From an uncultured bacterium (lineage in GTDB: Bacteria > Hydrothermota > UBA3073 > NMUJ01 > CBEVQO01), in assembly GCA_965552055.1 (NCBI GenBank), contig CBEVQO010000005.1:96001-160000 (forward strand): a stretch of DNA of 64,000 nucleotides. The letters run 5' to 3'. The position numbers were made by a program, and so were the translations under genes. Positions 2,729 through 60,725 of the stretch are shown here, piece after piece; positions within the stretch are counted from its first letter, which is position 1, and each line of letters begins with the position of its first letter. The notes under the pieces were generated by a model. It was not told where the DNA came from and did no database searches. It saw only the letters and a program-made list of their open reading frames with translations.

Positions 2729-2755
2729 TTGACAAAGAAATAATTTCATTATAAT
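2729..2755 (+). promoter_or_regulatory. Promoter of hydrogenase operon, TTGACA-N15-TATAAT, leaderless
   Basis: TTGACA 2729-2734, TATAAT 2750-2755, ATG 5 nt later at 2761, no Shine-Dalgarno. Confidence 0.8.
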
Positions 2756-2760
2756 AGGCG

Positions 2761-3750
2761 ATGAAGACCCTGTTCTGTTACAAGGATGTTTTTAGAGAGT
2801 TTTTAAAGAAGTTATCCTGCAGATATAAAATTTTTGCTCCTGTTGAAGGCATTTTTGGTACTTCTTTTGAGCAGCTTGATGAAGATAATATTGATAGGAT
2901 TCGCTTATTTGATGCTCGTTTGTCACAATCACTTAAATGGTTTTTCTATCCGCCTTTTGAATGTGTAACAGAAGAAGCAAAAGCAGAAGATTTTATAGTG
3001 ATAGGAGCAAAAGCATGCGATATAAAGGCTTTAAAAATACTTGATAATGTGTTTATTGGTGGAGATTATGTTGATGATTTTTATAAATCAAAAAGAGAAA
3101 AGGGTATAATAATTGCTTGTGATTGCACTGAGCCTTTGGAATATTGTTTTTGCATATTGCTGGGTGATAAGCCATATGTTGAAGAGGGTGCTGACCTATC
3201 GATTTCCGAGGTCCCACGGGGATACATAATAGATGTTTTGACGGAAAAAGGAGAGAATTTAATTCGTGGATTGAATTCAAGAGAAGCAGAAAGGACAGAA
3301 ATTGAGCAAAGGGAGGACAATAGAAAAAAAGTTATAGAAAAATTAAAAGAGATAAATAAGAAATTCAAATCCCTTGATAATGTTCGTGATATTATAAAAG
3401 ATTTATATGATAGTGAAGTGTGGCGTGAATATAGTGAGAGATGTGTTGAATGTGGTGCATGCACAATGGTATGTCCATCCTGTCATTGTTTCCTTTTACA
3501 GGAGAGTGTTGTCAGGGAATTTGGCAAAAACAGAGTTTGGGATTCATGCCAATATACCGGGTTTGCAAGGGAAGCAGGAGGTGCCAATCCTCGTAAAGAA
3601 GTATTTGAGCGCCTGAGAAACAGGTATTATTGTAAGTTCCAGTATAAGCCCGAGAATTTTGACCTTGTTGCGTGCACTGGCTGTGGTAGATGTGTTGCGG
3701 CGTGTCAGGGTGGGATTGATATGAGAGAGGTTTTGAGCAAGATGCTATGA
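2761..3750 (+). CDS. AsrA/HydB (sulfhydrogenase beta)-like 4Fe-4S protein
   Basis: GAKACD motif, CVECGACTMVCPSCHCF and CTGCGRCVAAC clusters, RVWDSC. Confidence 0.85.
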   Translation: MKTLFCYKDVFREFLKKLSCRYKIFAPVEGIFGTSFEQLDEDNIDRIRLFDARLSQSLKWFFYPPFECVTEEAKAEDFIVIGAKACDIKALKILDNVFIGGDYVDDFYKSKREKGIIIACDCTEPLEYCFCILLGDKPYVEEGADLSISEVPRGYIIDVLTEKGENLIRGLNSREAERTEIEQREDNRKKVIEKLKEINKKFKSLDNVRDIIKDLYDSEVWREYSERCVECGACTMVCPSCHCFLLQESVVREFGKNRVWDSCQYTGFAREAGGANPRKEVFERLRNRYYCKFQYKPENFDLVACTGCGRCVAACQGGIDMREVLSKML

Positions 3751-4616
3751 GCATTTATAAGCCAATAAGAGCAAGGGTAGAGAAAATAGTTGATGAGACA
3801 CCAAACATTAAAACATTTACACTTGTGCCAGAAAAGGAGATATCTTTTAAAACCGGTCAATTTATAGCACTTACTGTGCCAAAAGTAGGAGAAGCTCCTT
3901 TTACCCCTTCATCTTCACCTTATCAGAAAGATAAATTTGATGTTACGATAATGAAAATCAATTATAGAACAAGAGAAGGATTTGAGTATAAAGGTTATGT
4001 TACTAATGCGATTCACAATTTGAAAGAAGGAGATGTTGTTGGAGTGAGGGGTCCTTATGGTCGTGGTTATCCTGTTGATAAGATGTATGGTAAAGAGATT
4101 TTGATAGTAGGTGGTGGTGTTGGCATGGCACCTTTGAGGTCTTTTCTTTTGACAGTTTTGCATGATATTGATAAATTTAAGAGGGTTATTTTATGTTACG
4201 GAGCAAGGACTCCCAAAGATATAGTTTATAAGAAGCAATTTGAAGAAGAATGGATGAAAAACGAAAGGTTAGAGGTTTACAGAAGTGTTGACAAAGCAGA
4301 TGAAACTTGGCGAGAAGTTGAAGGAGTAGTTACTGTTTTACTTGATCAGTTTAAACCCGGTGATAAAAAAGCAATAAATCCGGATGAGTGTATATCTGTG
4401 GTTTGTGGTCCACCTATAATGATGAAATTTACGGTTAAAAAGCTGGTTGAAGATTTGAAGTTAAAGCCTGAAAATATTTATTTGTCTATGGAAAAGAATA
4501 TGTCATGTGGCTTGGGTAAATGCGGTCACTGTCAGATAGGCAAATATTATGCATGTAAAGATGGTCCGGTATTTGCATATTCAGAAATAATGGATATACC
4601 GGGGATATGGGAATGA
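3747..4616 (+). CDS. AsrB/HydG (FlxA)-like FAD/NAD(P)-binding 2Fe-2S subunit
   Basis: GEAPFT, RGPYGRG, GGGVGMAP, VCGPPIMM and C-terminal CGLGKCGHC...C motifs. Confidence 0.88.
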   Translation: MSIYKPIRARVEKIVDETPNIKTFTLVPEKEISFKTGQFIALTVPKVGEAPFTPSSSPYQKDKFDVTIMKINYRTREGFEYKGYVTNAIHNLKEGDVVGVRGPYGRGYPVDKMYGKEILIVGGGVGMAPLRSFLLTVLHDIDKFKRVILCYGARTPKDIVYKKQFEEEWMKNERLEVYRSVDKADETWREVEGVVTVLLDQFKPGDKKAINPDECISVVCGPPIMMKFTVKKLVEDLKLKPENIYLSMEKNMSCGLGKCGHCQIGKYYACKDGPVFAYSEIMDIPGIWE

Positions 4617-5020
4617 AATCAAAAATTGTAGAGAAGGTTCGTTTTACAAATTTTGTTGATAAAGAAAAGGTAGTGGAAGCCGATGCTTTAATTGATACAG
4701 GTGCTACTATTTGTGCTTTACCGAAAGATATGGTTGAGAAATTGGGCTTACAGAGATTGAGGAAAGCAAAAGTCCGCCATGCTGATAATAGAGTAGCGGA
4801 AAAAGATGTTTACGGTGTTGTAACTATAAGGATTCTCAACAGAGAAGGTGAGTTTAATGTTGTATGTGAGGAAGAGGGTACCCAGCCCTTGATTGGCTTA
4901 ACGGTTTTGGAGCAATTAGATTTAATGATTGACCCATCGAGGAAATGTGTGATACCCAACCCAAGGTCAGGTGATTTACCTGTAGTTGATTTAATAAGCC
5001 ATGAAGCGAATATTTATTGA
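4613..5020 (+). CDS. Clan AA (retropepsin-like) aspartic protease, inserted in operon
   Basis: ALIDTGA catalytic motif and PLIGLTVLEQLDLMIDP C-terminal motif; ATG overlaps the upstream TGA. Confidence 0.8.
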   Translation: MKSKIVEKVRFTNFVDKEKVVEADALIDTGATICALPKDMVEKLGLQRLRKAKVRHADNRVAEKDVYGVVTIRILNREGEFNVVCEEEGTQPLIGLTVLEQLDLMIDPSRKCVIPNPRSGDLPVVDLISHEANIY

Positions 5021-5459
5021 TCTGGAGAAGTGTTATAAATGCGAGAAGTGTGTAGCCAGGTGCAACTATCCGTATCATCCGGATAATAATGGGGTGCTGA
5101 AACTGATAGAAATGGGTGTGAGGGAAACCGTTTGCAGAAAATGTGAAGATGCTCCCTGTATAAATGCATGTCCAAACGAAGCTCTTGAAAGATTAGAAGA
5201 TGGAAGAGTTAAAAGGTATAATATGAGGTGTACTGGATGTGGCACATGTGTTGTTGCATGTCCTTTTGGTGTTATTTTCCATGAAATAATAACCTATTAT
5301 GATTCGCAATGTGATTTCTGTGAAGGAAGGGAACCTTTATGTGTGAAGACATGTCCTCATGGTGCGATAAAATATGAAGAGGTTGAAGAAGAGCCCGAAA
5401 AAAGGGTTTATGTTATTGGAGATAAATTTGCTGTTCATGCAATGGGGTGGGAGAGATGA
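5001..5459 (+). CDS. 4Fe-4S polyferredoxin subunit (HycB/DmsB-like)
   Basis: Multiple CxxC and CxxCxxCxxxCP motifs. Confidence 0.85.
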   Translation: MKRIFIDLEKCYKCEKCVARCNYPYHPDNNGVLKLIEMGVRETVCRKCEDAPCINACPNEALERLEDGRVKRYNMRCTGCGTCVVACPFGVIFHEIITYYDSQCDFCEGREPLCVKTCPHGAIKYEEVEEEPEKRVYVIGDKFAVHAMGWER

Positions 5460-6376
5460 AGTGGCTATTTGATTTTGTGGTATTTCCTGGCTTTGTATTT
5501 ACTGCGGTAATTGGGTGTATAGTCAAGTGGTTTGACAGGAAGCTTACTGCGAGGATACAGTGGCGGGTTGGTCCACCTTTTTTACAGCAGTTTTATGACT
5601 TTATAAAACTTACTGCGAAGGAAACGATAATACCAAAAGGTGCAGGTGCTACATTTGTATTGCCTCCGATTATAAGTGTAGTAGCAGTTACTATTGTGTC
5701 AACATTGATATGGAAAGCGATATTAAATCCCGAGCAGACATTTGTTGGTGACCTTATCGTTGTGATTTATTTCCTTATGGTTCCTAATATTTGTGCGATA
5801 ATAGGGGGTGCTGCTTCTCGCAATCCTTTGGCTTCTTTGGGTGTAAGCAGGGAGTTGAAGCTGTTACTTGCTGACGAGTTGCCCTTTATTCTTGCTGCAT
5901 TTGTACCTGTTATAAAGGCACATACAATTAGACTTGGAGAGTTACTTACATGGCAATGGAATAATGAATTGTTTATTGCTTCTGCATCAGGTATTATTGC
6001 ATTTCTCGTAATTTTAGCGTGTATGCAGGCGAAACTTGCTTATCAGCCATTTGACATTCCTGAGGCAGAGACAGAGATAATAGCAGGTCCTTATACTGAG
6101 TATTCTGGTGTGCTTCTGGGTCTTTTCCTTTTATCTCGCTGGATGCTGTTATTTGCACTACCCATGTTTGTAGTTGTTATGTTCCTTGGTGGCATTAAAT
6201 TTTCTGGCTGGCATACTCTCTGGGGTATTTTGAAGTATATAGGATTGCTGATTTTGATAATAGTGGTTAAGAATACGAATCCGAGGATAAGGATAGATCA
6301 GGCTCTTAAATTTTTCTGGTGGGGTGTTACACCTCTTGCTATTTTGTCTGTTGTTCTTGCACTATTTGGTTTGTAA
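5456..6376 (+). CDS. Membrane anchor subunit (NuoH/HycD/MbhM family)
   Basis: RKLTARIQWRVGPP and PFDIPEAETEIIAGPYTEYSG motifs; multiple TM helices. Confidence 0.9.
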   Translation: MKWLFDFVVFPGFVFTAVIGCIVKWFDRKLTARIQWRVGPPFLQQFYDFIKLTAKETIIPKGAGATFVLPPIISVVAVTIVSTLIWKAILNPEQTFVGDLIVVIYFLMVPNICAIIGGAASRNPLASLGVSRELKLLLADELPFILAAFVPVIKAHTIRLGELLTWQWNNELFIASASGIIAFLVILACMQAKLAYQPFDIPEAETEIIAGPYTEYSGVLLGLFLLSRWMLLFALPMFVVVMFLGGIKFSGWHTLWGILKYIGLLILIIVVKNTNPRIRIDQALKFFWWGVTPLAILSVVLALFGL

Positions 6377-6480
6377 TGCGAGCGTTAGCGAGCTCATTTC
6401 ATATGGGTTTTTTGTCGCACCCGAGCGAAGCGAGGGTTGCGCAAATGGGAAGGTGGGGACTGGGAGGCGGGGCTAAAAAT
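6374..6480 (-). repeat. Dispersed GC-rich intergenic repeat, shortest complete copy (inverted relative to the other copies)
   Basis: Reverse complement matches the ends of 17539-17725 and 29133-29461 (ATTTTTAGCCCCGCCTCCC ... GCTCGCTWACGCTCGCATTA). Confidence 0.85.
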
Positions 6481-6483
6481 ATC

Positions 6484-6510
6484 TTGACAAAGTTATATTT
6501 TGATTATAAG
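6484..6510 (+). promoter_or_regulatory. Internal promoter TTGACA-N15-TATAAG, leaderless for the hydrogenase small subunit
   Basis: TTGACA 6484-6489, TATAAG 6505-6510, ATG 6518. Confidence 0.6.
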
Positions 6511-6517
6511 AAGAGCC

Positions 6518-6934
6518 ATGGGTATTAAGATTGGTGCTTTAAAGAGGTCTATATGGCTTTTTCATTTTAATTCGGGTTCATGCAATAACTGTGATATTGA
6601 GATTGTTGACTGTTTAACTCCTCGGTATGACATTGAGAGATTTGGCTTGAAACTTGTAGGTAGCATTCGTCATGCTGATGTTCTTGTAGTAACGGGTTTT
6701 GTCAGCCGTCAGAGTGCTATTCGTTTAAAGAGGTTGTGGGAGATGATGCCAGAGCCTAAGTTTGTTGTAGCAGTTGGTACCTGTGCGTGTTCTGGTGGTA
6801 TTTTTGCAGAATCCTATCATATGGCGGGTCCTGTTGATAAGATAATACCTGTTCATGCTTATATACCAGGTTGTCCGCCCAAGCCGGAAGCTATAATTTC
6901 TGGTATTGTGAAATTGTTGAACACTTTAAAATGA
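6518..6934 (+). CDS. Group 4 [NiFe]-hydrogenase small subunit (MbhJ/HycG/NuoB family)
   Basis: GSCNNCDIE, RHADVL, GTCACSGG and IPGCPPKP motifs. Confidence 0.92.
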   Translation: MGIKIGALKRSIWLFHFNSGSCNNCDIEIVDCLTPRYDIERFGLKLVGSIRHADVLVVTGFVSRQSAIRLKRLWEMMPEPKFVVAVGTCACSGGIFAESYHMAGPVDKIIPVHAYIPGCPPKPEAIISGIVKLLNTLK

Positions 6935-7308
6935 GTGAAATCAAAGTTATGGAGGATTTACTGAAAGAGGCAAAGAAATATATTGAAGAGGGTAATGTTG
7001 TTCAGGCGAGCGAGAAGATTTATAAGGTGATAGAGGAAGGCATTAAGTTTTTATCGAGCAGGGATGGAGTTCCTGAATATTCTGTTGCGCAGAAGGAAGG
7101 CAGGTGGTGGACGCATTTACTTGGTAAGGCAGCTGTTCGACTTTCTAAAAAATATAATGAACAGATGATAAATGATTGCTGGGCAAATGCCTATGACCTT
7201 CATGTATGGGGTTATCACGAAAGGAAATATGATATGGATACGGTTAAACCTAAATTGAGATATGCAGAGTGGATGCTTGAATTTGTAAAGAAGGTGTCAA
7301 ATGAGTGA
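6931..7308 (+). CDS. PaREP1 (HEPN-superfamily) protein, tandem copy 1
   Basis: GNVVQASEKIYK and AYDLHVWGYHE PaREP1 signatures; ATG overlaps the small-subunit TGA. Confidence 0.85.
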   Translation: MSEIKVMEDLLKEAKKYIEEGNVVQASEKIYKVIEEGIKFLSSRDGVPEYSVAQKEGRWWTHLLGKAAVRLSKKYNEQMINDCWANAYDLHVWGYHERKYDMDTVKPKLRYAEWMLEFVKKVSNE

Positions 7309-7681
7309 GGAGATAAAAGTTATGGAAGAGTTGCTGAAGGAGGCAAAGAAATATATTGAAGAGGGTAATGTTGTTCAGGCGAGCGAGAAGATTTATAAGG
7401 TGATAGAGGAAGGCATTAAGTTTTTATCGAGCAGGGATGGAGTTCCTGAATATTCTGTTGCGCAGAAGGAAGGCAGGTGGTGGACGCATTTACTTGGTAA
7501 GGCAGCTGTTCGACTTTCTAAAAAATATAATGAACAGATGATAAATGATTGCTGGGCAAATGCCTATGACCTTCATGTATGGGGTTATCACGAAAGGAAA
7601 TATGATATGGATACGGTTAAACCTAAATTGAGATATGCAGAGTGGATGCTTGAATTTGTAAAGAAGGTGTCAAATGAGTGA
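7301..7681 (+). CDS. PaREP1 protein, tandem copy 2
   Basis: Identical to copy 1 except for the first ~10 codons. Confidence 0.85.
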   Translation: MSEEIKVMEELLKEAKKYIEEGNVVQASEKIYKVIEEGIKFLSSRDGVPEYSVAQKEGRWWTHLLGKAAVRLSKKYNEQMINDCWANAYDLHVWGYHERKYDMDTVKPKLRYAEWMLEFVKKVSNE

Positions 7682-8054
7682 GGAGATAAAAGTTATGGAA
7701 GAGTTGCTGAAGGAGGCAAAGAAATATATTGAAGAGGGTAATGTTGTTCAGGCGAGTGAGAAGATTTATAAGGTGATAGAAGAAGGCATTAAGTTTTTAT
7801 CGAGCAAGGATGGGATACCAGAGTATTCTGTTGCGCAGAGAGAAGGCAGATGGTGGATGCATTTGCTTAGTAAGGCATCTCGTCGTCTTTCTAAAAAATA
7901 TAATGAAGATGAAATTTATCATGTGTGGAGTGTTGCGTATGATTTGCATGTATGGGGCTATCATGAAAGGAAACTTGATATAGAAGATGTTAAGCCAAAT
8001 ATTAAATATGCGGAGTGGATGCTTGAATTTGTGAAGAAGGTGTCAAATGAGTAA
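7674..8054 (+). CDS. PaREP1 protein, tandem copy 3 (divergent central patch)
   Basis: Same N- and C-termini as copy 2; central segment differs (MHLLSKASRR, EDEIYHVWSV, KLDIEDVKPNIK). Confidence 0.85.
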   Translation: MSEEIKVMEELLKEAKKYIEEGNVVQASEKIYKVIEEGIKFLSSKDGIPEYSVAQREGRWWMHLLSKASRRLSKKYNEDEIYHVWSVAYDLHVWGYHERKLDIEDVKPNIKYAEWMLEFVKKVSNE

Positions 8055-8475
8055 GATTGATAAAATAAAAGAAAAGTTTGAGAAAGAGATAAAAAAGATA
8101 AAAAAAGTTGGTGAATTTGAATATTTTATTGATATTGACAGAAGAGATTTGCTTAAAGTGGTTGATTATATTTTTAACGATTTAAAAGGCAGATACAATA
8201 TTTTGTCTGCAACGGATCTGGAAGAGGGTTTTGAGATCCTTTATCATTTTAGTTTTGATGAAGAAGGTAAAAGGGTTACTTTGAGGGTGATGCTGTCTCA
8301 TGAAAATCCAGAAGTTGAATCGATAAGTAGTATTGTAAAAGGTGCGCAATGGATAGAGAGGGAGATTATGGATTTACTTCCTATTAAATTTTTGAATCAT
8401 CCTGATCCTCGCAGATTTATCTTATCCGATGATTGGGAAGAGGGGGTATATCCTTTGAGAAGGGAGAAGAGATGA
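8047..8475 (+). CDS. NuoC/MbhK-like hydrogenase subunit
   Basis: EILYHF, WIEREIMDL and FLNHPDPRRF motifs. Confidence 0.88.
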   Translation: MSKIDKIKEKFEKEIKKIKKVGEFEYFIDIDRRDLLKVVDYIFNDLKGRYNILSATDLEEGFEILYHFSFDEEGKRVTLRVMLSHENPEVESISSIVKGAQWIEREIMDLLPIKFLNHPDPRRFILSDDWEEGVYPLRREKR

Positions 8476-17842: not shown

Positions 17843-17884
17843 TTGACAAAATTAGATTTTTATTATAATATTAGATATGTCTAA
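17843..17884 (+). promoter_or_regulatory. Promoter TTGACA-N15-TATAAT followed by a DtxR/MntR-type operator palindrome
   Basis: TTGACA 17843-17848, TATAAT 17864-17869, near-perfect palindrome TTAGATATGTCTAA 17871-17884 over the expected start site; DtxR-family gene 1 kb downstream. Confidence 0.7.
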
Positions 17885-18910: not shown

Positions 18911-18942
18911 TTGACTTTTTGAATTTAAAATTATAATTATCT

Positions 18943-19659: not shown

Positions 19660-20086
19660 CTTTCCTCCTGTTAAAAAGTTTAGAAAAAGTGTCAATTATT
19701 CTTTTTGCATGTTTAAAGCCTTCTTTTATCATCTCAACTCCAACTCCTCCCCTGTAATATCCCAAGATATGCAAATTTTCATGAACAACTCTTAAAGATG
19801 CCTGCAATTTGCCATTGTGGGGTGCTTTCTTAAGCCATTCCCAGTATTCATCATAAGAAGTAGGTAGCTTATCTTCCGGACAGCCTTTTGATAGGGCAAA
19901 TGCATCGATTGCAAGTAATGCAGAGAGATAACCTATAGCACATGCCTCTTTTACAGGTTTCTCATCCGTATAAATCCCATATTTTATTTCAACATTTTTC
20001 AAAATCTCTTTTGCATTGTTGAAATAGCGATGCGACATCTCAATCGCCTCTTCAGCACTCGTTGGACGCTTAAATGCCTTCATCAT
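19652..20086 (-). CDS. DUF5618-like (HEPN/PaREP1-related) protein, tandem copy B
   Basis: RYFNNAKEIL, YTDEKPVK and LHILGYYRG motifs; nearly identical to copy A. Confidence 0.65.
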   Translation of the reverse strand: MMKAFKRPTSAEEAIEMSHRYFNNAKEILKNVEIKYGIYTDEKPVKEACAIGYLSALLAIDAFALSKGCPEDKLPTSYDEYWEWLKKAPHNGKLQASLRVVHENLHILGYYRGGVGVEMIKEGFKHAKRIIDTFSKLFNRRKDD

Positions 20087-20532
20087 GGATTATAATCTTC
20101 ACGCTTCTTTTTTCTATCAAAAAGTTTGGAAAAAGTGTCGATTATTCTTTTTGCATGTTTAAAACCTTCTTTTATCATTTCAACTCCAACTCCTCCCCTG
20201 TAGTATCCAAAAATATGCAGATTTTCGTAAACAACTCTTAGAGATGCCTGCAATTTACCATTGTGGGGTGCTTTCTTAAGCCATTTCCAGTATTCATCAT
20301 AAGAAGTGGGTAGTTTGTCTTCCGGACAGCCTTTTGATAGGGCAAATGCGTCAATTGCGAGTAATGCAGAGAGATAACCTATAGCACATGCTTCTTTTAC
20401 AGGTTTCTCATCCGTATAAATCCCATATTTTATTTCAACATTTTTCAAAATCTCTTTTGCATTGTTAAAATAGCGATGCGACATTTCAATCGCTTCTTTG
20501 GCGCTCGTTGGACGCTTAAATGCTTTCATCAC
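20083..20532 (-). CDS. DUF5618-like protein, tandem copy A
   Basis: As copy B; preceded by TTGACA-N15-TATAAT (20561-20535, minus strand). Confidence 0.65.
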   Translation of the reverse strand: MMKAFKRPTSAKEAIEMSHRYFNNAKEILKNVEIKYGIYTDEKPVKEACAIGYLSALLAIDAFALSKGCPEDKLPTSYDEYWKWLKKAPHNGKLQASLRVVYENLHIFGYYRGGVGVEMIKEGFKHAKRIIDTFSKLFDRKKKREDYNP

Positions 20533-20572
20533 GAATTATAATCAAAAAATGAATCTGTCAAGTTTTCAAAAA

Positions 20573-21905: not shown

Positions 21906-21936
21906 TTAAAATACTTAAATTATAACAATGTCAACA

Positions 21937-21986: not shown

Positions 21987-22142
21987 GAATTTTAAAATTT
22001 CGCTTGACATTTTCCGTTATCGATTATATAACTACGATGCAAACTTTGAGACATAACTTGCTTAATTGCATTTTAATGAAAAGAAGCACGGATATGAATA
22101 GGGAGGCGCAATTGCTTTAAATGTAAATAAAGGAGGTGTAAA

Positions 22143-25240: not shown

Positions 25241-25303
25241 AATTTAATCAAAATACAGCATTGTCAACTATTTTTATTGACAAACTGAAATTATCAGTAA
25301 AAA
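25241..25303. promoter_or_regulatory. Back-to-back divergent promoters for pckA and gdhA
   Basis: Minus: TTGACA (25267-25262)-N15-TAAATT. Plus: TTGACA (25277-25282)-N15-TAAAAA, a weak -10. Confidence 0.6.
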
Positions 25304-29520: not shown

Positions 29521-29564
29521 TTGACAGAGGAAAATGTTAATTATAATATGCAAAAGGAGGGAGT
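29521..29564 (+). promoter_or_regulatory. Promoter TTGACA-N15-TATAAT with Shine-Dalgarno
   Basis: TTGACA 29521-29526, TATAAT 29542-29547, AAGGAGG before GTG 29565. Confidence 0.75.
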
Positions 29565-33946: not shown

Positions 33947-33982
33947 ATTGTTGACAAAATCAAATAAGAATTAAAATTTTTG

Positions 33983-41165: not shown

Positions 41166-44100
41166 TTTTGTTTTTATTACTTCAATATAAATTAGTGTGG
41201 TGTGATAGTGTAAATTTCAGCAATTATGATAGAGCCTTTGCAATAAAATTTAGAGGAAGCGAAATACTCGTTGCGGGATACGGTGTTATAAATCTTGCAT
41301 ATCGTGGAGTTATTTTACATTACGATAAATCCGGGAATTTGTTAAGAATAGATACAATTTACACGGGTGCAGCTACTTACATTTATGACATGGATGTAAA
41401 GCAGGATAAGATAATTCTTGCAGGACAGAGAGGTATAGGTTCATCCGGTGATTTACTCATTGTAAGAATGGATACTTTAGGTGATACTCTCTGGACAAAA
41501 TGTGTTGATAAATTTGGAGATGCAGAAAGAGGCAACGGAATATTTTATGCGAATAATGACACTTTTGTTGTAACAGGTTATGCAAAACTTAATGCCAATA
41601 ATTATTTTTACACTTTAATGTTAATGGATACTGCTATCATATGGCAAAATAGCGATTATTTAGGACAGGGAGAAGATGTGATTTATACTAATGCTGGAGT
41701 TTTTGCATGTGGAGTAGGAGAGTTGTCTTCAAGTGAGGCATTTTTACTTTTAAAATATAATTTCACAGGTAATATTGTAAATATAGATACAATTGATTTC
41801 GCAGGAGATGAAGGAGCATATTCTTTGATAAAAGAAAATCAAATTTATGTTACAGGATATGTTGTGCCTTCAGCAAATGCAGATTGCTATATTGTGAAAT
41901 ATAATTTTAATTGCGATACTATATGGACAGGGAAATTTGCTAAAGGCGGTGGAGATTATGGGTATTCTGTATTTTGTAAAAATGGCTATGTATATGTAGC
42001 AGGTATGACACAGACAGCAACAAGGGGAAATGATATTCTCATTTTGCAATACGATACTCTTGGTAATTTGATGTATTGTGATTCAATCGATTTAGGGACG
42101 GATGAAGAGGCGCACGGTATAATAGTTGACGATTCGCTAAATGTTTACATTTGCGGATATAAAGGCGGGGTTAATACAGATATTTTTGTGCTGAAACTGA
42201 TGCCGGTAGCTGACATTGAATTGTCAGATACTTTTCGTGACTTTGGCAATGTAAAAGTTGGTGATACAGTAAGATGGCAATATCTTATCATTAAAAATAC
42301 AGGTTTTAAGTGTTTAACAATAGATAGTATAAAAGTGGATTTTCCGTATTTTGTGGATATTTCTCAAATTGCGATATCACCTTCTGATAGTGTACTACTT
42401 ACAGTTTCTTTTTCACCAAAGGATTCGGGAGTTGTTGAGAAATTGTTGAAAATATATTCAAATGACCCAGATGAGCCTATAAGTACAGTAAGATTAAAAG
42501 GAGGAGGGTTAAAGCCGGGAATCTCTCTTTCCGATACTATTTTGGATTTTGGACAAGTTTTAAAAGGCGATACATCAACGAAAATACTTGTCATAAAAAA
42601 TGCAGGCAATGATACTCTTTTTGTAGATAGTATGAAAATAGAAGGAAATTATTTTTCTGCGAAGTTACAATCTTTTTATTTGTTACCTGCTCAAACTTAC
42701 AATGAAACACTTTATTTTATTCCCCAAGATACAGGCGAATTTACAGGTACATTTTACATATACTCAAATGACCCCGATAAGCATGTATCTTATGTTGATT
42801 TAATGGGAAAAGGAATTAAACCGATTTTAATAATATCCCAACGAAATATAGATTTTGGAAATGTTGACCTAAAAGACACAGTGATGTCGCAAATTTGTCT
42901 CAAAAATGCAGGGAACGCGAATCTCATTATAGATAGTGTTAAAAATGAATTAGAGTGTTTCTGGTTTAGCCAGATTTCTGGATGCACTTTGACACCAAAA
43001 GATTCTACCCTTTTAAACATTTATTTTAGTCCGAAAGATTCCGGTGAATTTTCAGATACTTTAAAAATTTACTCTACCGATATTGATAGTCCTTTGAAAT
43101 TTGTCTCAATTTTTGGAATGAGCATTTTGCCTTATATTTTGCTTTCGCAGAATTTTTATGATTTTGGTCAAATCTTTATAGGTGATAGTGCTGAATTTTC
43201 GTTTTACATAAAAAACATAGGTTCTGCAACTCTTATCATTGACAGTATTGCTGGAGAAGAAAATTCGTTTAAAGTATTGCTACAGGATAGTACGATAAGG
43301 AGAGAAGATAGTGCTTTATGTGTTATTAAATTTATTCCTCAACGAATGGGAGAGATTTCAGAATCAATCTGTTTTTATTCGAACGACCAGAAAAGAGTCA
43401 AAGTTTATTTTTATGCTACAGGTACGGGATTGTGGGCGGATATTGAAGTTGGGGATACCACACTGGATTTTGGTGTAATCGCAATAAATGATACCTTTGA
43501 GAAAGAGATAATGGTGTATAATCAGGGAAATTACAGGATAAAGATAGATAGTGTGATTTTGAGAGATTCGGTATTCTGGCTCACTTCTTTTCCAGAGAGT
43601 ATTGCGGGGTTTGACACTGTTTATCTCAAAGTATATTTTGCACCCAAAGATAGCATTGAATATACAGGGAAGTTATACATTTATTCGGATGATGAAGATG
43701 AAGGAATTTTAAGCGTAGCGCTGAAAGGAAAAGGAGGTTTACCTGAAATAAAGGTTTACCCTGATTTCTTAGATTTTGGAGAAGTAAATTTAAAAGATAC
43801 AGCGGATACCCATATTGTGATAAAGAATGAAGGAGATGCATTACTTGAAATAACAAAAATGACCTTTACGGATACCAGCTTCTGGACACTATCTTCTTTT
43901 CCTCTATATATTTCTGGCAGTGATAGTATTCTTTTGGGGATTTATTATAATCCCAAAGATACTTCTTCTGTGCTTTGCACACTTTATATTTACTCAAACG
44001 ATAAAGAAAATGCAGTTCTCACCCCTATATTGAAAGGTAAAGGCACGATATTAAAAATTGAAGAAATATCACCTGTTTATAATTTTGTAGAGATAAAACC

Positions 44101-45399: not shown

Positions 45400-47936
45400 T
45401 TCTGAGCGCCATAATACTGTGGCATCAGTTAAATACACAAAATTATGTAGTTTTATATCCCGGGGATTATGAAAAAATAGCAATTCAGGTAGCAAAATAT
45501 CTGGAGACATACAGAATGAAAGTGAAAGAAATAACAGGCGTTAAAAATGAGAAGTTAATCTGTGTGATTGAAGATATGGGGCTTTTTTCTAATGGTTTTG
45601 CTTTACCTCCTTTAAATACAATTCATATTTTTACCGGTATTCCTTCTTCTGATCCTCATTTTGATGTAAGGTCGTGGTTTCGCATTGTTACCCTTCATGA
45701 GCAAACTCACTGTGCACATATGAGAAATTATACGGGTCTTTCTTTGATTTTTAGATTGCTTTTCGGTGAAATTATGTCGGGGAATATGTGGGTGCCTAAC
45801 TGGATTGTAGAAGGTGTGACAGTTTATACTGAATCGCAGATAGATAAATATGATGGTAGATTGAACACAGGATACTATAACGCATATTTACTCTGTTGTG
45901 CGGCACATAGAAAAATTCCGGGCTTAGCATCTATCGCAAATAATATAGCAAGATATCCGTATTATACTCAACATTATTTATTTGGCGGAGAATTTACACA
46001 ATATCTCGCAATAAAAGGACATTTGTCTTCGCTTTATAATGATTTGTCATTGTTTTTCTTTCCATGGATAAATATTGAGCTTTCCTTTTTTGTAAATTAT
46101 TTAAATTTTCCGTTTCTGCTTGCCGAAAGATGGAGAAAAACATTATATCGAAAAGCAAAATGGGTAAAAAATGGTAAAACCTTACTAAAAACAAATAGCG
46201 AGATAAAATTTTTGACTATATATGGTGATTATCTTTACTATGTGAAAAAAAGAGTAAATGCAAGTGCACCTCTGGAAATCGTAGAGGAAAGCGGTATTTA
46301 CAGGTTAAATCTGGAAAATAATATAGAAGAAAAGTTGATAAATGCGTTTGTAGAGATTCCTTTTAAAATAAAAGATGATAAAATTTATTATTGCGTTGAT
46401 AAAATGAAAAGAGGTTATAAAAATATAACTGCATGGGGATATGGAGTTTACAGAAAATTAATTTCATACGATTTACAATCGGGTGAAAAGAAAAAAATAT
46501 ATGAAGGAAATATAAGAAGTTATGAAGTTTTAAAATACGATAAAATTTTAATTTTTGAAGAAGATAGGTTATTACATACTTCGATTAAGTTGTTGGATAA
46601 TGGAAAGATTGAAACGATAGGAGAACTTGATGGAAAAATAATTCTTGAGAGTGTGCTTTTTGATAGTTTGATTTTTTGTGTTGTGCATGATGAAAAATGG
46701 GGTAAAGATTTGTATGCTTTAGATTTAAAAGATATGGAAATAAAAAGGATAACGAAGACGCCTTTTTCGGAAATGTGCATTTCCAGATATGGTGATCTAT
46801 TAATCTTTGTAGCAAATAAGGATAATTTTTATAAAATTTATGGATATGATGTTAAAAGGAAAAGATTTTACGAGTTGCTATCCGAAACATTTTCGGCTTA
46901 TCCTGTTGTATATAAAGATAAAATTTTTTATGTTACATTACATCCCGAAGGTGAAGAAATTTGTGTATCTTTATACACGAAAAAAGATATAGATTATCCT
47001 GAATTTTCTGAAGAATATGGTATTCATCCAGAAGAATTTGCGGTTAAAAAGAGTTCCTGTTATGCAAATGAATTGAGATTTCTTTTGCCCGTATTCTATG
47101 TCTTGTTTCCGCCTTATGTGTTTTGTATTATAAGTGCTGATGCTTTCATGCAAAAAGCGTTGGGAGTATTTTACACCAGATACGAAGAAAATACTTATAT
47201 AAACAGCATTGGATATTGCATAATTAAGCCATTTATTGTGTTTGGAAATATAGAAAGGTATAATTTTGATTCGCAAAAGGAATTTGAGAGCTACGGGGCA
47301 GGTGTAAATTTAATCGCCAGATACAATATGGGATACGGAGAAAATTTGAGAATATATGGAATTAGAGTGCAATATGAGAAAGATACCCTTGATAAGGTAA
47401 AAATTGAAAAAGATGTTTTTGTGTTTTCAAATTTAAAAGGTTTTAACAATTACAAAAATTTAATGTTCGGAGTGTATCAGGTTGATGGTGATATTAAGGT
47501 GTATTTTGATTATTTACATGAGGAATATATAAGGTTTTTAAAGGCAGAGTATGGGGTGGGTATGGGATACTGGGGAAGTGGGTGGAGCTGTGAATATCTT
47601 TTGCATTTGATAATGCCCGTTTTAAAGCCAAGGTTGAATCTATATCCTCTTTTCTTTGATACTTTTTACATGGGAATATTTTTGGAAGGCAAGTTTAATC
47701 ATAAGATGAGAAATACCTGGAATACCGGTTTGAAATTTATCGCAGAAACTGGCACGAGTTATGGGTTTATAAAATTAACACCCTATTTAAAAATTTTTTG
47801 GGATGAAAATTTAAAATTTGATTATGAGATAGGAGTTGAAAATGTTACGATGTCTTTGTTAAAAGGTAAAATAAATTTATCCAGATTAAAATATTACAGG
47901 TTGTTTTATCTTGACAAAATAGGAAAAGGATTATAA
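45396..47936 (+). CDS. Hypothetical exported protein: gluzincin-like domain, propeller-like middle region, possible C-terminal barrel
   Basis: LHEQTH...PNWIVEG motif. Confidence 0.5.
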   Translation: MILSAIILWHQLNTQNYVVLYPGDYEKIAIQVAKYLETYRMKVKEITGVKNEKLICVIEDMGLFSNGFALPPLNTIHIFTGIPSSDPHFDVRSWFRIVTLHEQTHCAHMRNYTGLSLIFRLLFGEIMSGNMWVPNWIVEGVTVYTESQIDKYDGRLNTGYYNAYLLCCAAHRKIPGLASIANNIARYPYYTQHYLFGGEFTQYLAIKGHLSSLYNDLSLFFFPWINIELSFFVNYLNFPFLLAERWRKTLYRKAKWVKNGKTLLKTNSEIKFLTIYGDYLYYVKKRVNASAPLEIVEESGIYRLNLENNIEEKLINAFVEIPFKIKDDKIYYCVDKMKRGYKNITAWGYGVYRKLISYDLQSGEKKKIYEGNIRSYEVLKYDKILIFEEDRLLHTSIKLLDNGKIETIGELDGKIILESVLFDSLIFCVVHDEKWGKDLYALDLKDMEIKRITKTPFSEMCISRYGDLLIFVANKDNFYKIYGYDVKRKRFYELLSETFSAYPVVYKDKIFYVTLHPEGEEICVSLYTKKDIDYPEFSEEYGIHPEEFAVKKSSCYANELRFLLPVFYVLFPPYVFCIISADAFMQKALGVFYTRYEENTYINSIGYCIIKPFIVFGNIERYNFDSQKEFESYGAGVNLIARYNMGYGENLRIYGIRVQYEKDTLDKVKIEKDVFVFSNLKGFNNYKNLMFGVYQVDGDIKVYFDYLHEEYIRFLKAEYGVGMGYWGSGWSCEYLLHLIMPVLKPRLNLYPLFFDTFYMGIFLEGKFNHKMRNTWNTGLKFIAETGTSYGFIKLTPYLKIFWDENLKFDYEIGVENVTMSLLKGKINLSRLKYYRLFYLDKIGKGL

Positions 47937-47937
47937 T
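47911..47937 (+). promoter_or_regulatory. Promoter of hdr cluster, TTGACA-N15-TATAAT, leaderless
   Basis: TTGACA 47911-47916, TATAAT 47932-47937, ATG 47945. Confidence 0.75.
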
Positions 47938-54454: not shown

Positions 54455-54458
54455 TCTT

Positions 54459-55606: not shown

Positions 55607-55608
55607 AA

Positions 55609-55664
55609 ATTAAAATTGAAATACTAAAATGTCAAGCTTGACATTTACAAAATTTATTTATAAT
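55609..55664. promoter_or_regulatory. Divergent N15 promoters sharing the palindrome AATGTCAAGCTTGACATT
   Basis: Minus: TTGACA (55635-55630)-N15-TTTAAT. Plus: TTGACA (55638-55643)-N15-TATAAT. Both leaderless. Confidence 0.72.
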
Positions 55665-55671
55665 TTTTGAA

Positions 55672-56877
55672 ATGAATGAAATACTTACATTATTAAAAGA
55701 GGTTTCGCAAAAGACGGATACGAAGATATTGCTACTTGTGATAGATGGAGTAGGTGGCTTACCTGTTTCTGGCAAAACCGAGTTAGAAGCAGCCAATACG
55801 CCGAATCTCGATGAACTCGCAAAGAAAAGCGCACTCGGACTGACAGACCCTGTATTTCCCGGTATAACCCCTGGTAGTGGACCCGGGCATCTATCACTTT
55901 TTGGCTATGACCCGATAAAATGGAATATCGGAAGAGGGGTGCTCGAAGCACTTGGAGTTGGGCTTACTCTTTCTAAAAAGGATATAGCCATAAGGGGAAA
56001 CTTTGCTACAATCGAAAATGGAGTCATTACAGATAGAAGAGCAGGAAGAATTCCCACAGAAGAAAATAAAAAAATTTGTCAGAGGTTAGCGGAAAATATA
56101 AAAAAGATTGAAGATGTTGAAATACTGATAACTCCCGGAAAAGAGCACAGATTTGTGCTGGTATTACGGGGAGAGAATTTAGGTGATAAAGTTTGCGATA
56201 CCGACCCGCAACAGACAGGAAAACCACCAATAGAGCCAAAAGCAATAGAAGAAGATGAAGGTTCTAAAAAAACCGCTAAAATTTTGAAAAAATTCGTAGA
56301 AGAAGCAACGAAATATCTGGAAAAGCCGGCAAATTATATTTTATTAAGAGGAATTTCAAAACCGCCAGATATTCCACCGATGCAGGAAGTTTATAAAATA
56401 AAACCATGTGCGATAGCAACCTATCCGATGTATAAAGGAATAGCAAAACTTGTGGGAATGGATGTAGTGGAATGCGGGACCACACTTGAAGAACAGGTAA
56501 AAGCTTTAAAAGAAAATTGGGATAAATATGACTTTTTCTATTTTCATGTAAAGAAAACAGATTCAATGGGTGAAGATGGTAATTTTGAGGGTAAAGTTAA
56601 ACTTATTGAAGAGGTTGATAAAATAATCCCTGATTTACTTTCTTTGAATCCCGATGTTTTTGTGATAACGGGTGACCATTCTACTCCTTGCGTTCTTAAG
56701 TCTCATTCATGGCATCCGAATCCTTTTTTGCTTTATTCAAAATATGTGATACCTGATGATGGTAAAAGATTTACAGAGAGAGAATGTGCGAAAGGTATTC
56801 TTGGTAGATTTCCTGCACTTTATGCAATGTCCTTAATGCTTGCCAATGCTTTAAAGTTGAAAAAATACGGTGCTTAG
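55672..56877 (+). CDS. apgM: 2,3-bisphosphoglycerate-independent phosphoglycerate mutase (archaeal ApgM type)
   Basis: IDGVGG, TELEAANTPNLD, PGSGPGHLSLFGY and TGDHSTP motifs. Confidence 0.93.
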   Translation: MNEILTLLKEVSQKTDTKILLLVIDGVGGLPVSGKTELEAANTPNLDELAKKSALGLTDPVFPGITPGSGPGHLSLFGYDPIKWNIGRGVLEALGVGLTLSKKDIAIRGNFATIENGVITDRRAGRIPTEENKKICQRLAENIKKIEDVEILITPGKEHRFVLVLRGENLGDKVCDTDPQQTGKPPIEPKAIEEDEGSKKTAKILKKFVEEATKYLEKPANYILLRGISKPPDIPPMQEVYKIKPCAIATYPMYKGIAKLVGMDVVECGTTLEEQVKALKENWDKYDFFYFHVKKTDSMGEDGNFEGKVKLIEEVDKIIPDLLSLNPDVFVITGDHSTPCVLKSHSWHPNPFLLYSKYVIPDDGKRFTERECAKGILGRFPALYAMSLMLANALKLKKYGA

Positions 56878-57657
56878 TTATTCTCGTTCAGGATAAAGCA
56901 CGATAATTAAATCTTTTCCACCCGGACCTTTTTCTTTTAAAGGTTCGCCTTTTTCATCGAATCCCAAGATACCGTAAGATATGGCGTAATTCTTGCCTCT
57001 TGGTGCATAGTATCCATAAGCGAGATAACCTGGTTTTCCGCGCATTTGACCATTTATGCCTTTGGGGTCCCTATCTTCGCAATCTGCTTCACGGAAATAG
57101 GTGAAAAGTTTAATTCCGCATTTCACATAAGTTTCGCCTTTTTTCAATACATATCCTTTTGTTCGAATGATTTTTCTTGGATAAACTTCGCCTTTTTTCA
57201 ATACATATCCCGCAGTAAAAGTATCGGCTTTGATTACGAGTGAGTCCCCAACCTTTTCCTGTCTGAATTTTATGTAAACATCGCCTTCTTTTAAAGTATC
57301 GCCTTCCTTTAAGAATTCTATCTGGACGAGGGTATCGCCTTCTCCTAGAGTATCCCCTTCTTTCAGCACAGTATATTTTGGTAGCGGTTTTCCCGTGTAT
57401 GGATTTACCGGGTATTCGAAGAATTCTTCGATTTGCTGAATGGATGTTGGATATTTCCCATCGTGGAATGCTGCATACTGTTCGACAGCGGCTTTTAGTT
57501 TATACATGTTCAGTTTCACCTCGTATCTTTTATTTTGCAGTTCATACTGTTTGTACTGTGGGATTGCGAGTATGAGTATTACGCAGACCGCGGCTACACC
57601 AATTCCAATATCCAGAGCAATTAAAGCCTTTCTACTAATTTTGCCCCCCTTCTTCAA
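56878..57657 (-). CDS. Pilin/pseudopilin-like protein with degenerate N-terminal motif and internal repeats
   Basis: Hydrophobic helix ending ILAIPQY; VKLNM..LK.AVEQY...HDGKYP and PVNPYTG resemble GspG-like pilins. Confidence 0.55.
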
Positions 57658-58096
57658 ATTTTACAACTTCAATTCCTGCTTCTTTTAGAATCTCTTTTGC
57701 AAATTCATCGGGATAACCTTCCTTATAAACTATTTTTTTAATTCCTGCGTTTATCAACATTTTTGCGCATGTAAAACATGGATGATGCGTTATGTAAATT
57801 GTTGCGCCATTTAAATTTGCGCCCAATTTTGCTGCCTGAATTATTACATTTTGTTCTGCATGTACTCCCCTGCAGAGTTCCTGTCTTTCACCTGCAGGTA
57901 TTTTTAATTTTTCGCGTAAACAGCCGATTTCTTCGCAATGTTTTAAATTTTCGGGTGCCCCATTATAACCTGTTGCAATTATTCTTTTATCTTTCACGGC
58001 TACTGCTCCCACTTTTCTTCGTAAACAGGTCGAACGAGTAGCAACGAGTTGCGCGATTTCCATAAAATAAGCATCCCATGACAAACGCTTACTCAT
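57635..58096 (-). CDS. dCMP deaminase (ComEB family)
   Basis: [20 protein letters not shown] and PCFTC motifs. Confidence 0.93.
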
Positions 58097-59349
58097 TCAT
58101 ATTCCTCCAAGACATCGTCATATAAAGGAAATTGTGAACATAATTCCTTTACTTCTTCTCTTACTTTTTCAATCGTCTTTTCGTCATCGATATTCGATAA
58201 AACTTTATCTATTAATTCTGCTATTTTTTTCATTTCTTCCTCTTTCATACCTCTTGTTGTAACAGCAGGGGTTCCCAGTCGTATTCCGCTTGGGTCAAAA
58301 GGTTTTCTTGGGTCAAATGGGATTGTATTTTTGTTAACCGTAATACCCGCACGCTCAAGCGCTTCTTCTGCTTGTTTCCCAGTAATTCCTTTGTTTCTTA
58401 AATCAACGAGCATCAGATGGTTATCGGTTCCTCCCGATACTAACCTATATCCTCTTTTCATAAGTTCTTCTGCGAGTGTTTTTGCATTTTTAACGATTTG
58501 TTTTTGATATTCTTTAAATTCTTCGGTCATTGCTTCTTTAAAGCAAACAGCTTTTGCTGCAATTATATGCATATGGGGTCCGCCTTGAAGCCCTGGAAAC
58601 ACCCATTTATCCACAGCTTTTGCGTGTTCTTCTTTGCACATTATTATCGCGCTTCGAGGTCCTCTTAGGGTTTTGTGAGTAGTAGTAGTTACAACATCTG
58701 CATAAGGTACAGGTGAAGGATGCAAACCTGCTACAACGAGTCCTGCTATATGCGCAATGTCTGCAACATGATAAGCACCTACATCATCGCAAATTTCTTT
58801 AAATTTATCAAAATGGATGATGCGGGGATATGCACTTGCACCCGATACTATTATCTTTGGTTTATGTTCTTTTGCTAATCTCCAGATTTCGTCATAATTG
58901 AGCATTTCGGTTTCTGGGTCAACTGTATAGTGGACTGCATTGAACCATATTCCGGAGAAACTTACTTTATGTCCGTGTGACAAATGTCCGCCGTGAGCCA
59001 GTGCCATACCCATTATTGTATCGCCTGGTTTTGCGAGTGCAGCATAAGCAGCCATATTCGCAGGCACTCCAGATAAAGGTTGTACATTAACATGGTCACA
59101 GCCAAATAATTTTTTCGCTCGCTCAATAGCAAGGCGCTCAACTTCATCAACCCATTTACATCCACCATAATATCTTTTTCCGGGATAACCTTCAGCATAT
59201 TTATTTGTCATAACACAGCCCATTGCTTCAAGAACTGCTTTTGAAGTAAAATTTTCGGATGGAATTAATTCAAGAGTGTTTCTCTGTCTCCCTATTTCTC
59301 CTTTTATTGCCTCATACACCTCTGGGTCGACTTCTTTTAACTTAAGCAT
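58093..59349 (-). CDS. glyA: Serine hydroxymethyltransferase
   Basis: [32 protein letters not shown] and SGIRLGTPA motifs. Confidence 0.97.
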
Positions 59350-59797
59350 AATTCCCTCCGGATGATTTTTCTATTTCTTTTATTTTGTTAAATCTTCTCT
59401 CATGTCTTCCGCCTTCAAATTCTGTTTTTAAAAATATTTCTACCATTTTTTTAGCTTTCTCAGCATCAATAAAATCTGCTGGTAATGCGATTATATTTGC
59501 GTTGTTATGCTGGCGTGCTCTTTTGGCAAGTTCTTCATCCCAGCATAGTGCGCAATATGCACCTTTTACTTTATTTGCCGTTATCGACATACCGATACCA
59601 GAGCCACATATTAAAATGCCTTTATGCGCTTCACCCTTTGCCACGATTTCCGCTACTTTTTTGCCAAAATCAGGATAATCACAGGAAGCAGTAGAATTAG
59701 TTCCACAATCTATTATTTCATGCTCTTTCTCTAAATATTTCTTTAGTTCCTCTTTTAATTTATAACCTCTGTGGTCTGCACCCATTACTATTTTCAT
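59342..59797 (-). CDS. rpiB: Ribose-5-phosphate isomerase B
   Basis: GADHRG, DYPD, CGSGIG, HNNAN and FEGGRH motifs. Confidence 0.95.
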
Positions 59798-59802
59798 CTT
59801 AA

Positions 59803-59864
59803 ATTTTAAACAAAATACAAAAGTGTCAAGAAAAATATTGACAATCTTAAGAAATTTGTATCAT
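59803..59864. promoter_or_regulatory. Divergent N15 promoters for rpiB and wzm
   Basis: Minus: TTGACA (59829-59824)-N15-TAAAAT-N5-ATG. Plus: TTGACA (59838-59843)-N15-TATCAT-N6-GTG. Confidence 0.72.
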
Positions 59865-59870
59865 ATTGTA

Positions 59871-60692
59871 GTGAAGAGAGAAATCATAATAAAACCCAGT
59901 CGTGGTATAAACTGGCGTGCTCTGAAAGAGATAAAGCACTATAAAGATTTGCTTTTCTTTTTCATCTGGAAAGAGTTTAAAGTTCGTTATAAGCAAACTT
60001 TACTTGGTGTTGCATGGGCTATTTTGCGTCCTGTTATTCAAATGTTAATATTCACTTTAATTTTCCACAAATTTGCGAAAATACCTTCTGAAGGGATACC
60101 TTATCCTGTTTATGCTTATTGCGGGTTATTACCATGGCAGCTTTTTTCTCTGGGACTTGGTAGGGCAAGCGAAAGTGTGGTGGGCAATGCTTCTATAATA
60201 ACAAAAGTTTACTTCCCAAGAATTATTCTGCCTCTATCTTATACTCTGGGCGGGCTTATTGATTTTGGGCTTCAGTTTTTTGTTTTGATAATTTTAATGT
60301 TGATATTTGGAATAAAAATAGGTTTGAGTATTCTTTTCATTCCTTTTTTCATAATTCTTGCTTTATTGTCTTCTCTGAGTGTTGGGATTTTATTTTCTGC
60401 TCTAAATGTTAAATTCAGGGATATTCGTCATCTGATGCCGTTTTTGACTCAAGTATGGTTTTTTGCCACACCTATAGTTTATTCACATGAAATAATTCCA
60501 GAAAAATTCAGGTTAATTATGAGGATAAATCCAATGACAGGGGTAGTTGAAGGTTTCAGATGGTCGCTATTAAACAAAGGCAGTGTAGATTTTCAAGCGA
60601 TTTTATTTTCGGTTATAATAGTTTCTTTTCTGATATTCGTAGGTTTACTTTATTTTTCGAAGGTAGAGCGAGAATTTGCAGATATAGTATAA
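59871..60692 (+). CDS. wzm: ABC-2 polysaccharide exporter permease
   Basis: KVRYKQTLLGVAW, KVYFPR, TPIVY, NPM and EREFADIV motifs. Confidence 0.92.
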   Translation: MKREIIIKPSRGINWRALKEIKHYKDLLFFFIWKEFKVRYKQTLLGVAWAILRPVIQMLIFTLIFHKFAKIPSEGIPYPVYAYCGLLPWQLFSLGLGRASESVVGNASIITKVYFPRIILPLSYTLGGLIDFGLQFFVLIILMLIFGIKIGLSILFIPFFIILALLSSLSVGILFSALNVKFRDIRHLMPFLTQVWFFATPIVYSHEIIPEKFRLIMRINPMTGVVEGFRWSLLNKGSVDFQAILFSVIIVSFLIFVGLLYFSKVEREFADIV

Positions 60693-60725
60693 CTTGACAA
60701 TTTTAAAATATGAATAAAATAAGAG

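Follow-up and report, generated by a model that had tools for sequence, protein, structure and literature searches.

Promoters of sigma-70 type in an uncultured bacterium of the phylum Hydrothermota have the ordinary hexamers, TTGACA at -35 and TATAAT at -10 (with the A at position 2 and the T at position 6), but the distance between them is most often 15 bp, outside the 17+/-1 bp that marks promoters of this family. The stretch with which this account is concerned, here called the window, is 64,000 nucleotides of one contig (C5:96001-160000 of the genome under study, G000), and coordinates of sites below are window positions unless a contig handle is given. A first-pass annotation of the window had proposed that the short spacer seen there is a genome-wide default, and the spacer histogram of the whole genome, which peaks at 15 and not at 17, bears this out. 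The genome (2.23 Mb in 15 contigs, C1, C2 and so on; 35.6% G+C) is the sole one of its family, f1, an RpoD search of genome and metagenome contigs for further members having yielded, besides distant sigmas, just one contig, which was identical. Comparison was with a class sample of 22 genomes in families f1-f6, in which f1 and its sister family f2 make up one order, and with a phylum sample of 150 other genomes. The observation is real and strong; what we infer is the mechanism.

With Nx standing for x bp between the -35 and -10 hexamers, perfect TTGACA-Nx-TATAAT occurs 121 times at N15 in the 2.23 Mb, against 7 occurrences at N14, 27 at N16, 7 at N17 and 4 at N18. Relaxing the match to 11 or more of the 12 positions gives 341 sites at N15 and 32-89 at other spacers, the reversed sequence that served as genome-wide control giving 6-25. 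When sequences are aligned on TTGACA alone, the first T and A maxima fall at offsets 21 and 22, and the later T maximum falls at 26 and not at 28. The 55 sites at N16 have their start codons at the same distance from the N16 -10 as is found elsewhere, and because of this constancy N16 is a genuine, tolerated minor class. True N17 is almost absent: the 25 relaxed N17 matches can mostly be re-read by eye as N15 with TATATA, TATAAA or TATACA followed by AT, and none of those re-read has a start codon where one would be expected if its spacer were 17.

Other features of the sites are mostly familiar. An A/T-rich stretch lies upstream of the N15 sites, and 57% of 295 sites have a C directly before TTGACA; compared by family, the proportion is 49% in f1, 60% in f6, 75% in f4 and 19% in f2. 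The end of the spacer is less orthodox. It reads TTTTGAT, with the G peaking two bases before the hexamer (45-49%) and not one base before it as in TGn, so that the sites lack an extended -10, whereas an f4 relative has canonical TRTGn with G at 58%. At the N16 sites the spacer T and G are fixed relative to the -35 and shift relative to the -10. The boxes are also not those of SigB and other group-3 sigmas, GTTTWW and GGGWAW.

The position of the start codons is also pertinent. Among 522 TTGACN-N15-TANNNT sites in the genome, 55% have the ATG or GTG of an open reading frame (ORF) of at least 60 amino acids (aa) at index 9-15, the index being counted from the first T of the -10, as against 7% at the control spacer N13 and 4% at N19. 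Index 11 accounts for 154, index 12 for 54 and index 13 for 27 (235 in all). TAnnnT thus stands a few nucleotides before the start codon of a real ORF, as in known leaderless genes, and start codons 5-7 nt past the -10 (TATAAT-N5-ATG) at more than half of the N15 sites imply that mRNAs predicted to be leaderless are widespread. In f2 the start-codon peak is one base later, at index 12; in f6 it is at index 12-13, and in f4 there is no excess over controls. An N15-type promoter is within 60 nt of 20 of the 46 tRNA genes, and in 19 of these 20 the mature 5' end is at index 12-17 in the N15 register (four sites flagged as N17 were re-read by eye). From their placement, N15 promoters are the apparent drivers of housekeeping genes, tRNA genes included. 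Start points were deduced from start codons and tRNA 5' ends: because both sit there, the predicted start point must fall at about index 10-12, from which, with a 15-bp spacer, the putative -35 box begins near -32 or -33, not -35. The 5' leaders of tRNA genes (e.g. C2:24485, C2:316809, C3:32313) would be about 1-5 nt long or absent.

The spacing is not general in the class. All eight f4 genomes peak at N17, with 128-237 perfect sites there and 0-2 at N15. Families f5 and f6 peak at N16, as illustrated by G014 with 73 sites at N16, 25 at N17 and 3 at N15, and in f3 TTGACA-Nx-TATAAT has no clear mode (a hand count in G008 gave 0-7 per spacer). Another f3 genome, G004, has 11 strict sites at N15, 3 at N16 and 0 at N17, possibly a minor N15 class in a family with both a long and a short sigma. 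A peak at 15 in relatives, which the first-pass annotation had considered supportive, is present in f2, of the same order. That family is represented by G001, G002 and G003, one of them 99% complete, and its promoters are degenerate, with only 2-7 perfect sites and a -10 preference for TAxxTT. TTGACN-Nx-TANNNT nevertheless peaks at N15 in G001 (49, against 9-27 at other spacers, in 351 kb) and in G002 (41, against 8-24, in 257 kb; 18 of 60 by hand count). None of the 150 other phylum genomes sampled has more than 11 strict N15 sites, compared with 121 in G000. Because f2 peaks at 15, and the rest of the class and the sampled phylum do not, the 15-bp rule is, as judged from these genomes, a derived trait of one order, and the change would have arisen once, in the ancestor of that order.

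Within the window, the 17 sites by which attention was drawn to the spacing are as described, TTGAC(A/T) being followed by the named hexamer exactly 15 nt downstream at 17/17 coordinates. Thirteen fit TTGACW-N15-TAnnnT, the exceptions being 6484 (TATAAG), 22004 (TATATA), 55635 on the minus strand (TTTAAT) and 25277 (TAAAAA). With a further match at 43611 the window total is 14, a number reached by none of 100 dinucleotide-preserving shuffles (mean 1.95, maximum 6). TAnnnT lies at N15 from 14 of the 67 TTGACW in the window; the remaining spacers in the range 12-20 have 1-7 each. By a crude ORF call (at least 100 aa), 14 TTGACW are outside ORFs, and TAnnnT is at N15 in eight, a near-match in three and neither in three. 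The sites are as follows.

2729..2755, plus strand: TTGACA-N15-TATAAT, then N5-ATG, a leaderless-type start (ORF of 329 aa)
6484..6510, plus strand: TTGACA-N15-TATAAG, with ATG at index 13 (ORF of 138 aa)
17843..17869, plus strand: TTGACA-N15-TATAAT
18911..18937, plus strand: TTGACT-N15-TATAAT, then N5-GTG (ORF of 158 aa)
20535..20561, minus strand: TTGACA-N15-TATAAT, then N5-ATG
21908..21934, minus strand: TTGACA-N15-TATTTT, then N5-ATG
22004..22030, plus strand: TTGACA-N15-TATATA, then N6-ATG; one of the dispersed near-identical units of promoter plus start (ATGCAAAC...)
25241..25267, minus strand: TTGACA-N15-TAAATT, with a AAAGGAGAGAG leader (ORF of 597 aa)
25277..25303, plus strand: weak candidate, also weak in the first-pass annotation, TTGACA-N15-TAAAAA, with a Shine-Dalgarno leader and ATG (ORF of 414 aa)
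29521..29547, plus strand: TTGACA-N15-TATAAT, with a AAAGGAGGGAG leader and not leaderless (ORF of 665 aa)
33951..33977, plus strand: TTGACA-N15-TAAAAT, then N5-ATG
43611..43637, plus strand: TTGACA-N15-TATATT, the extra pattern match, in a long ORF with no start codon near; possibly chance
47911..47937, plus strand: TTGACA-N15-TATAAT, with ATG at index 13 (ORF of 1450 aa)
55609..55635, minus strand: TTGACA-N15-TTTAAT, then N5-ATG
55638..55664, plus strand: TTGACA-N15-TATAAT, with ATG at index 13 (ORF of 401 aa); diverges from the minus-strand 55635 site
59803..59829, minus strand: TTGACA-N15-TAAAAT, then N5-ATG (ORF of 151 aa)
59838..59864, plus strand: TTGACA-N15-TATCAT, with GTG at index 12 (ORF of 273 aa); diverges from the minus-strand 59829 site
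60694..60720, plus strand: TTGACA-N15-TAAAAT, then N5-ATG (ORF of 399 aa)

Several sequences of this kind are repeated. The 22004 site is one copy of a dispersed unit, TTGACA-N15-TATATA/TATACA-ATTATG-ATGCAAACT..., also present at C2:13685, C3:215218 (minus strand), C7:29436, C9:28374 and C10:26327, the window copy being at 22004-22040 (plus strand). One promoter with its gene start is therefore found in at least six places, possibly as part of a mobile element or a multi-copy gene. A different arrangement, TTGACA-atctacgaaaatcat-TATAAA followed by conserved ...AAAGAGCTCTTTGAAAAACG..., is in four copies, at C1:379336 (plus), C1:154783 (minus), C1:213893 (minus) and C6:20569 (plus). The window also has two tandem duplications. 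One, at about 7000-8050 on the minus strand, is threefold and repeats about every 373 bp, with the same TTGACA...AAGCAT strings recurring at 7300, 7673 and 8046. In the other, at about 19700-20560, a unit with a period of about 446 bp is present twice, and both copies include a small gene that has a promoter of its own (at 20116 and 20561, minus strand).

Which sigma reads these promoters is central to any explanation. A short sigma of about 270 aa, RpoS/RpoH-like and below every curated cut-off, is encoded in 22/22 class genomes and retains WWIRQ and TRERVRQ. The G000 version is 272 aa (C5:66583-67398 in contig coordinates, minus strand); that of f2 is about 280 aa, with rpoS_proteo as its best NCBIfam match at 205 bits, below the cut-off, and in a tree the short sigmas of f1 and f2 group together. 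Group-1 (long) RpoD was not found in 3/3 f2 genomes, which have only the short sigma and one extracytoplasmic function (ECF)-like sigma. That f2 seemingly lives with no group-1 sigma is a further surprise, linked to that of the spacing. G000 does have an RpoD, of 575 aa (C7:57373-59097), full-length and with all regions present. It scores 288 bits against a curated RpoD cut-off of 354, its identity to the RpoDs of the class is 47-50% over regions 2-4 where the others share 58-80%, and its terminal branch, 1.08 in what was only a quick tree, is the longest among RpoD sequences.

The divergence of this RpoD is not evenly spread. In region 2.4, RQAI[S/T]RAI has become RQQIMKAI, and in region 3.0 HM-E has become HMSN, the N being at what we take to be the equivalent of E. 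coli E458. Region 3.2 has two residues inserted and has lost its acidic tip. Region 4.2 (TRERIRQ) is unchanged, which fits the unchanged TTGACA. Region 1.1 is tandemly duplicated, with two Pfam Sigma70_r1_1 stretches at residues ~16-65 and 80-125; the alignments of class relatives begin at query residue 49, 80 or ~130, which suggests that the relatives carry a single copy. Both RpoD and the 272-aa sigma have the WW-RQ and TRER-RQ motifs that regions 2.4 and 4.2 of a cognate sigma should show. Promoters upstream of the two G000 sigma genes are uninformative, both genes being inside operons. The distance between the WW and RER motifs is 151 in class RpoDs and 152 in that of G000. Short sigmas have 148-149 in f1 and f2, but 148-150 in the other families too, except for 142 in f4, and the measure is not diagnostic.

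The suggestion of the first-pass annotation that the holoenzyme of this lineage reads a shortened spacer is supported in part, as to the 15-bp default and its inheritance within the order. Our preferred explanation, held tentatively and at a little under even confidence, is that these are genuine sigma-70-type promoters whose preferred spacer of 15 bp comes from re-tuning of the principal sigma or sigmas and not from the core enzyme or the twist of the DNA. The correlate is that this order alone has either lost group-1 RpoD (f2) or has a strongly divergent one (G000), and because relatives and a flagellin promoter, both considered below, weaken topology and core, a sigma-level change is the best-supported cause. 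The reader in G000 would probably be its intact, strongly divergent 575-aa RpoD, with regions 2.4, 3.0, 3.2 and the duplicated region 1.1 as the changed parts; in f2, where RpoD is missing, the reading of promoters would have to fall to the conserved short sigma, which is RpoS-like and about 280 aa long. For G000, RpoD is somewhat favoured over the short sigma, the lean being due to the resemblance of its promoters to those of RpoD type in f4 and f6 (C at -36, TATAAT and hundreds of perfect sites) and not to the degenerate sites of f2.

Several considerations weigh against re-tuned sigmas as the cause. The link between N15 and sigma comes from a single clade and one evolutionary event, and since within the class reverse gyrase is unique to this order (3/22) and the G000 GyrA box is lost, topology is confounded with sigma. 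If two sigmas read N15 promoters, RpoD in G000 and the short sigma in f2, a shared cause outside sigma is simpler. A shortened sigma linker was tried as the cause and rejected (the sigma3-sigma4 linker is one of the parts named in the first-pass annotation), the distance between regions 2.4 and 4.2 of the G000 RpoD being 152 residues against 151 in relatives. Further, the f4 (N17) and f5/f6 (N16) modes differ with no indel in RpoD regions 2-4, and because of this the ruler is not simple linker length. The comparison with sigma-28 promoters comes down to one imperfect promoter (6/8 and 5/8 matches) and a weak genome-wide peak. Start points, too, are predictions from start codons and tRNA ends.

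A closely related explanation is sigma replacement, with the RpoS-like 272-aa sigma as principal sigma of the whole order and its only N15 reader, RpoD being dispensable, lost in f2 and drifting in G000. With one sigma lineage and one change it is the most parsimonious. The short sigma is the only sigma of group 1-3 type in f2, where the mode is N15; its presence throughout the class with both motifs kept, and the grouping of its f1 and f2 copies, also favour replacement, as do the sub-threshold score and long branch of the G000 RpoD. Set against these are the full length and intact regions of that RpoD, f1 promoters of the f4/f6 RpoD type that are unlike the degenerate ones of f2, and the coexistence in f4, f5 and f6 of short-sigma orthologues with no visible N15 class. 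We regard replacement as unlikely, while giving it serious weight.

If the ruler were in the core enzyme or in the DNA, then promoters of every sigma should be shortened. The flagellin promoter of G000, of sigma-28 type, is not: it aligns base for base, with canonical spacing, with the perfect TAAAGTTT-N11-GCCGATAA of an f5 relative. Genome-wide, [TA]AA[AG]GTT-Nx-[CT]CGA[AT]A gives 9 matches in G000 at the canonical x=13 compared with 1 in the control, other spacers giving up to 7, and TAAA-Nx-CCGATA has no spacer peak in the same genome.

Topology enters because the extra twist of a relaxed or positively supercoiled chromosome could shift the optimum of an ordinary holoenzyme from 17 towards 15. 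Reverse gyrase, an enzyme of heat-loving organisms, exceeds its cut-off in three of the 22 class genomes, G000, G001 and G002, and in no other; that of G000 is full (C4:82901-86113). The G000 gyrA (C1:27269-29566) scores below the gyrA cut-off, and its product is without a GyrA box, a 9-residue gap being present where 10/10 other class genomes examined have Q-x-RGG-x-G. With the box lost and a full reverse gyrase present, G000 may lack negative-supercoiling activity. The model presented in PMC9303308 has short spacers favoured by relaxation, and our own arithmetic from its optimal angle of 543 degrees places the N16 optimum near sigma = 0 and that of N15 near +0.065 (sigma here being the measure of supercoiling). 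Relatives speak against such a cause. The f2 genomes have an intact GyrA box and are still N15, and f5 and f6, which have no reverse gyrase, have a mode of N16. In 27 other phylum genomes with reverse gyrase there are at most 3 strict N15 sites in each, and those checked peak at 16 or 17: G029 (N16, 31/53), G026 (N17, 12/15), G097 (N17, 14/29) and G139 (N16, 7/13). The GyrA box of G097 is degenerate, yet its mode is N17. Reverse gyrase by itself is not enough for an N15 mode. Thermotoga maritima, for which there was a reverse-gyrase match in the control, is among the species of PMC12641261, a source that gives strongest binding at 17 bp. Given also the unshortened flagellin promoter, topology is a rather improbable cause.

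A ruler in the core enzyme would involve substitutions in the beta flap, beta-prime clamp or zipper that bring the sigma-4 anchor about 2 bp nearer to sigma-2, with effect on all sigma-70-family factors, and would explain at once why N15 is common to two different sigmas. Columns that do not vary among the other families yet differ in f1 as well as in f2 number 18 in RpoB and 18 in RpoC, three of those in RpoB being near the base of the flap tip (G000 positions 815, 823 and 825), and the sequence of the flap-tip helix varies by family. The three changes are conservative, however, and those at 815 and 823 match the residue in the compared sequences of solved RNA polymerases. An indel in the RpoB flap, which the first-pass annotation had raised as a potential cause, was not seen: the flap-tip helix differs by substitutions with no indel, and alignment of the class sequences revealed no RpoB or RpoC indel common to only f1 and f2. 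(The variable RpoB stretch at 903-916 is a lineage insertion, of +55 aa in f4, and not the flap tip.) The flagellin promoter, a single case, again counts against it, and a core-enzyme cause is improbable. Least credible, and very nearly dismissed, is the notion raised in the first-pass annotation that TATAAT followed by A/T be read as TA-TAATWW, the functional -10 then being two bases downstream and the real spacer 17, as it conflicts with the TTGACA-anchored peaks and with the constant distance from -10 to ATG at N16 sites, would leave only 3-4 nt before start codons at index 11-12 and tRNA ends at 12-17, and would put the canonical start inside many tRNAs.

Among known systems, E. coli sigma-S, of group 2, accepts boxes like those of sigma-70 at looser spacing, and the sole sigma of f2 besides its ECF-like one is RpoS-like. 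Such tolerance differs from a sharp new optimum at 15. Likeness to canonical sigma-70/SigA promoters extends to both hexamers, the C before the -35 and the AT-rich upstream sequence, and the cognate sigma of G000 keeps the aromatic residues of region 2.3/2.4 and the RER-RQ of region 4.2. The differences are the mode of 15, with N16 the only tolerated neighbour and no true N17 class, a predicted start about 5-6 nt after the -10, and a spacer TG one base further from the -10 and at fixed distance from the -35.

Shorter spacing has a precedent of sorts in S. aureus SigB, whose promoters, GTTTWW-~14-GGGWAW, are described from cryo-EM in PMC11156646. There too a holoenzyme of the sigma-70 family has a spacer about 3 bp shorter, so that sigma alone can alter apparent spacing, but in that account the short spacer is due to another kind of -10, which sigma-2/sigma-3 recognise partly in duplex form. 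The -10 of G000 is an ordinary TATAAT and housekeeping genes are served. Leaderless promoters of Deinococcus-Thermus (PMC12340547) are similar in having TAnnnT a few bases before the start codon and leaderless mRNAs; the -35 distance cited in that work is 17+/-1 bp, whereas G000 has a strong -35 at 15 bp, with start codons peaking 5 nt after the -10. As to the spacer-supercoiling model (PMC9303308), favouring of 15-nt spacers on relaxed DNA is predicted there, and the N15 order is alone in the class in having reverse gyrase, but what that model treats is modulation within E. coli, where 17 is still commonest, and not a lineage default.

Full-text literature searches, which did not extend to subscription journals or preprint supplements, found no description of a 15-bp spacer as a genome-wide default, in keeping with the first-pass annotation, which knew of none. 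The ProFinder preprint (bioRxiv 10.64898/2026.09.23.753901), with a panel of 49 genomes of TSS-mapped bacteria, reports that the median spacer was 17 in each of them and that 99.2% of promoters had spacers of 16-18 bp. The 17-bp spacer has been treated as invariant and built into promoter predictors, some of which, on the methods given for ProFinder, search only 16-18 bp. Promoter finders fixed at that range would miss most promoters of this order, and gene callers should allow for leaderless genes that begin 5-6 nt past the -10.

A 15-bp default with close relatives at 16 and 17 means that promoter geometry can evolve. The broader proposition, for which we consider the case evenly balanced, is that this order has reset its initiation ruler, cutting the distance from -35 to start by 3 bp relative to every bacterium studied (spacer 15, discriminator about 5), that this reset accompanied the loss or remodelling of its primary sigma, and that the class would constitute a natural 15/16/17 series. 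With its sigma sequences, flap sequences and topoisomerase content, the class provides comparative material for what sets that geometry.

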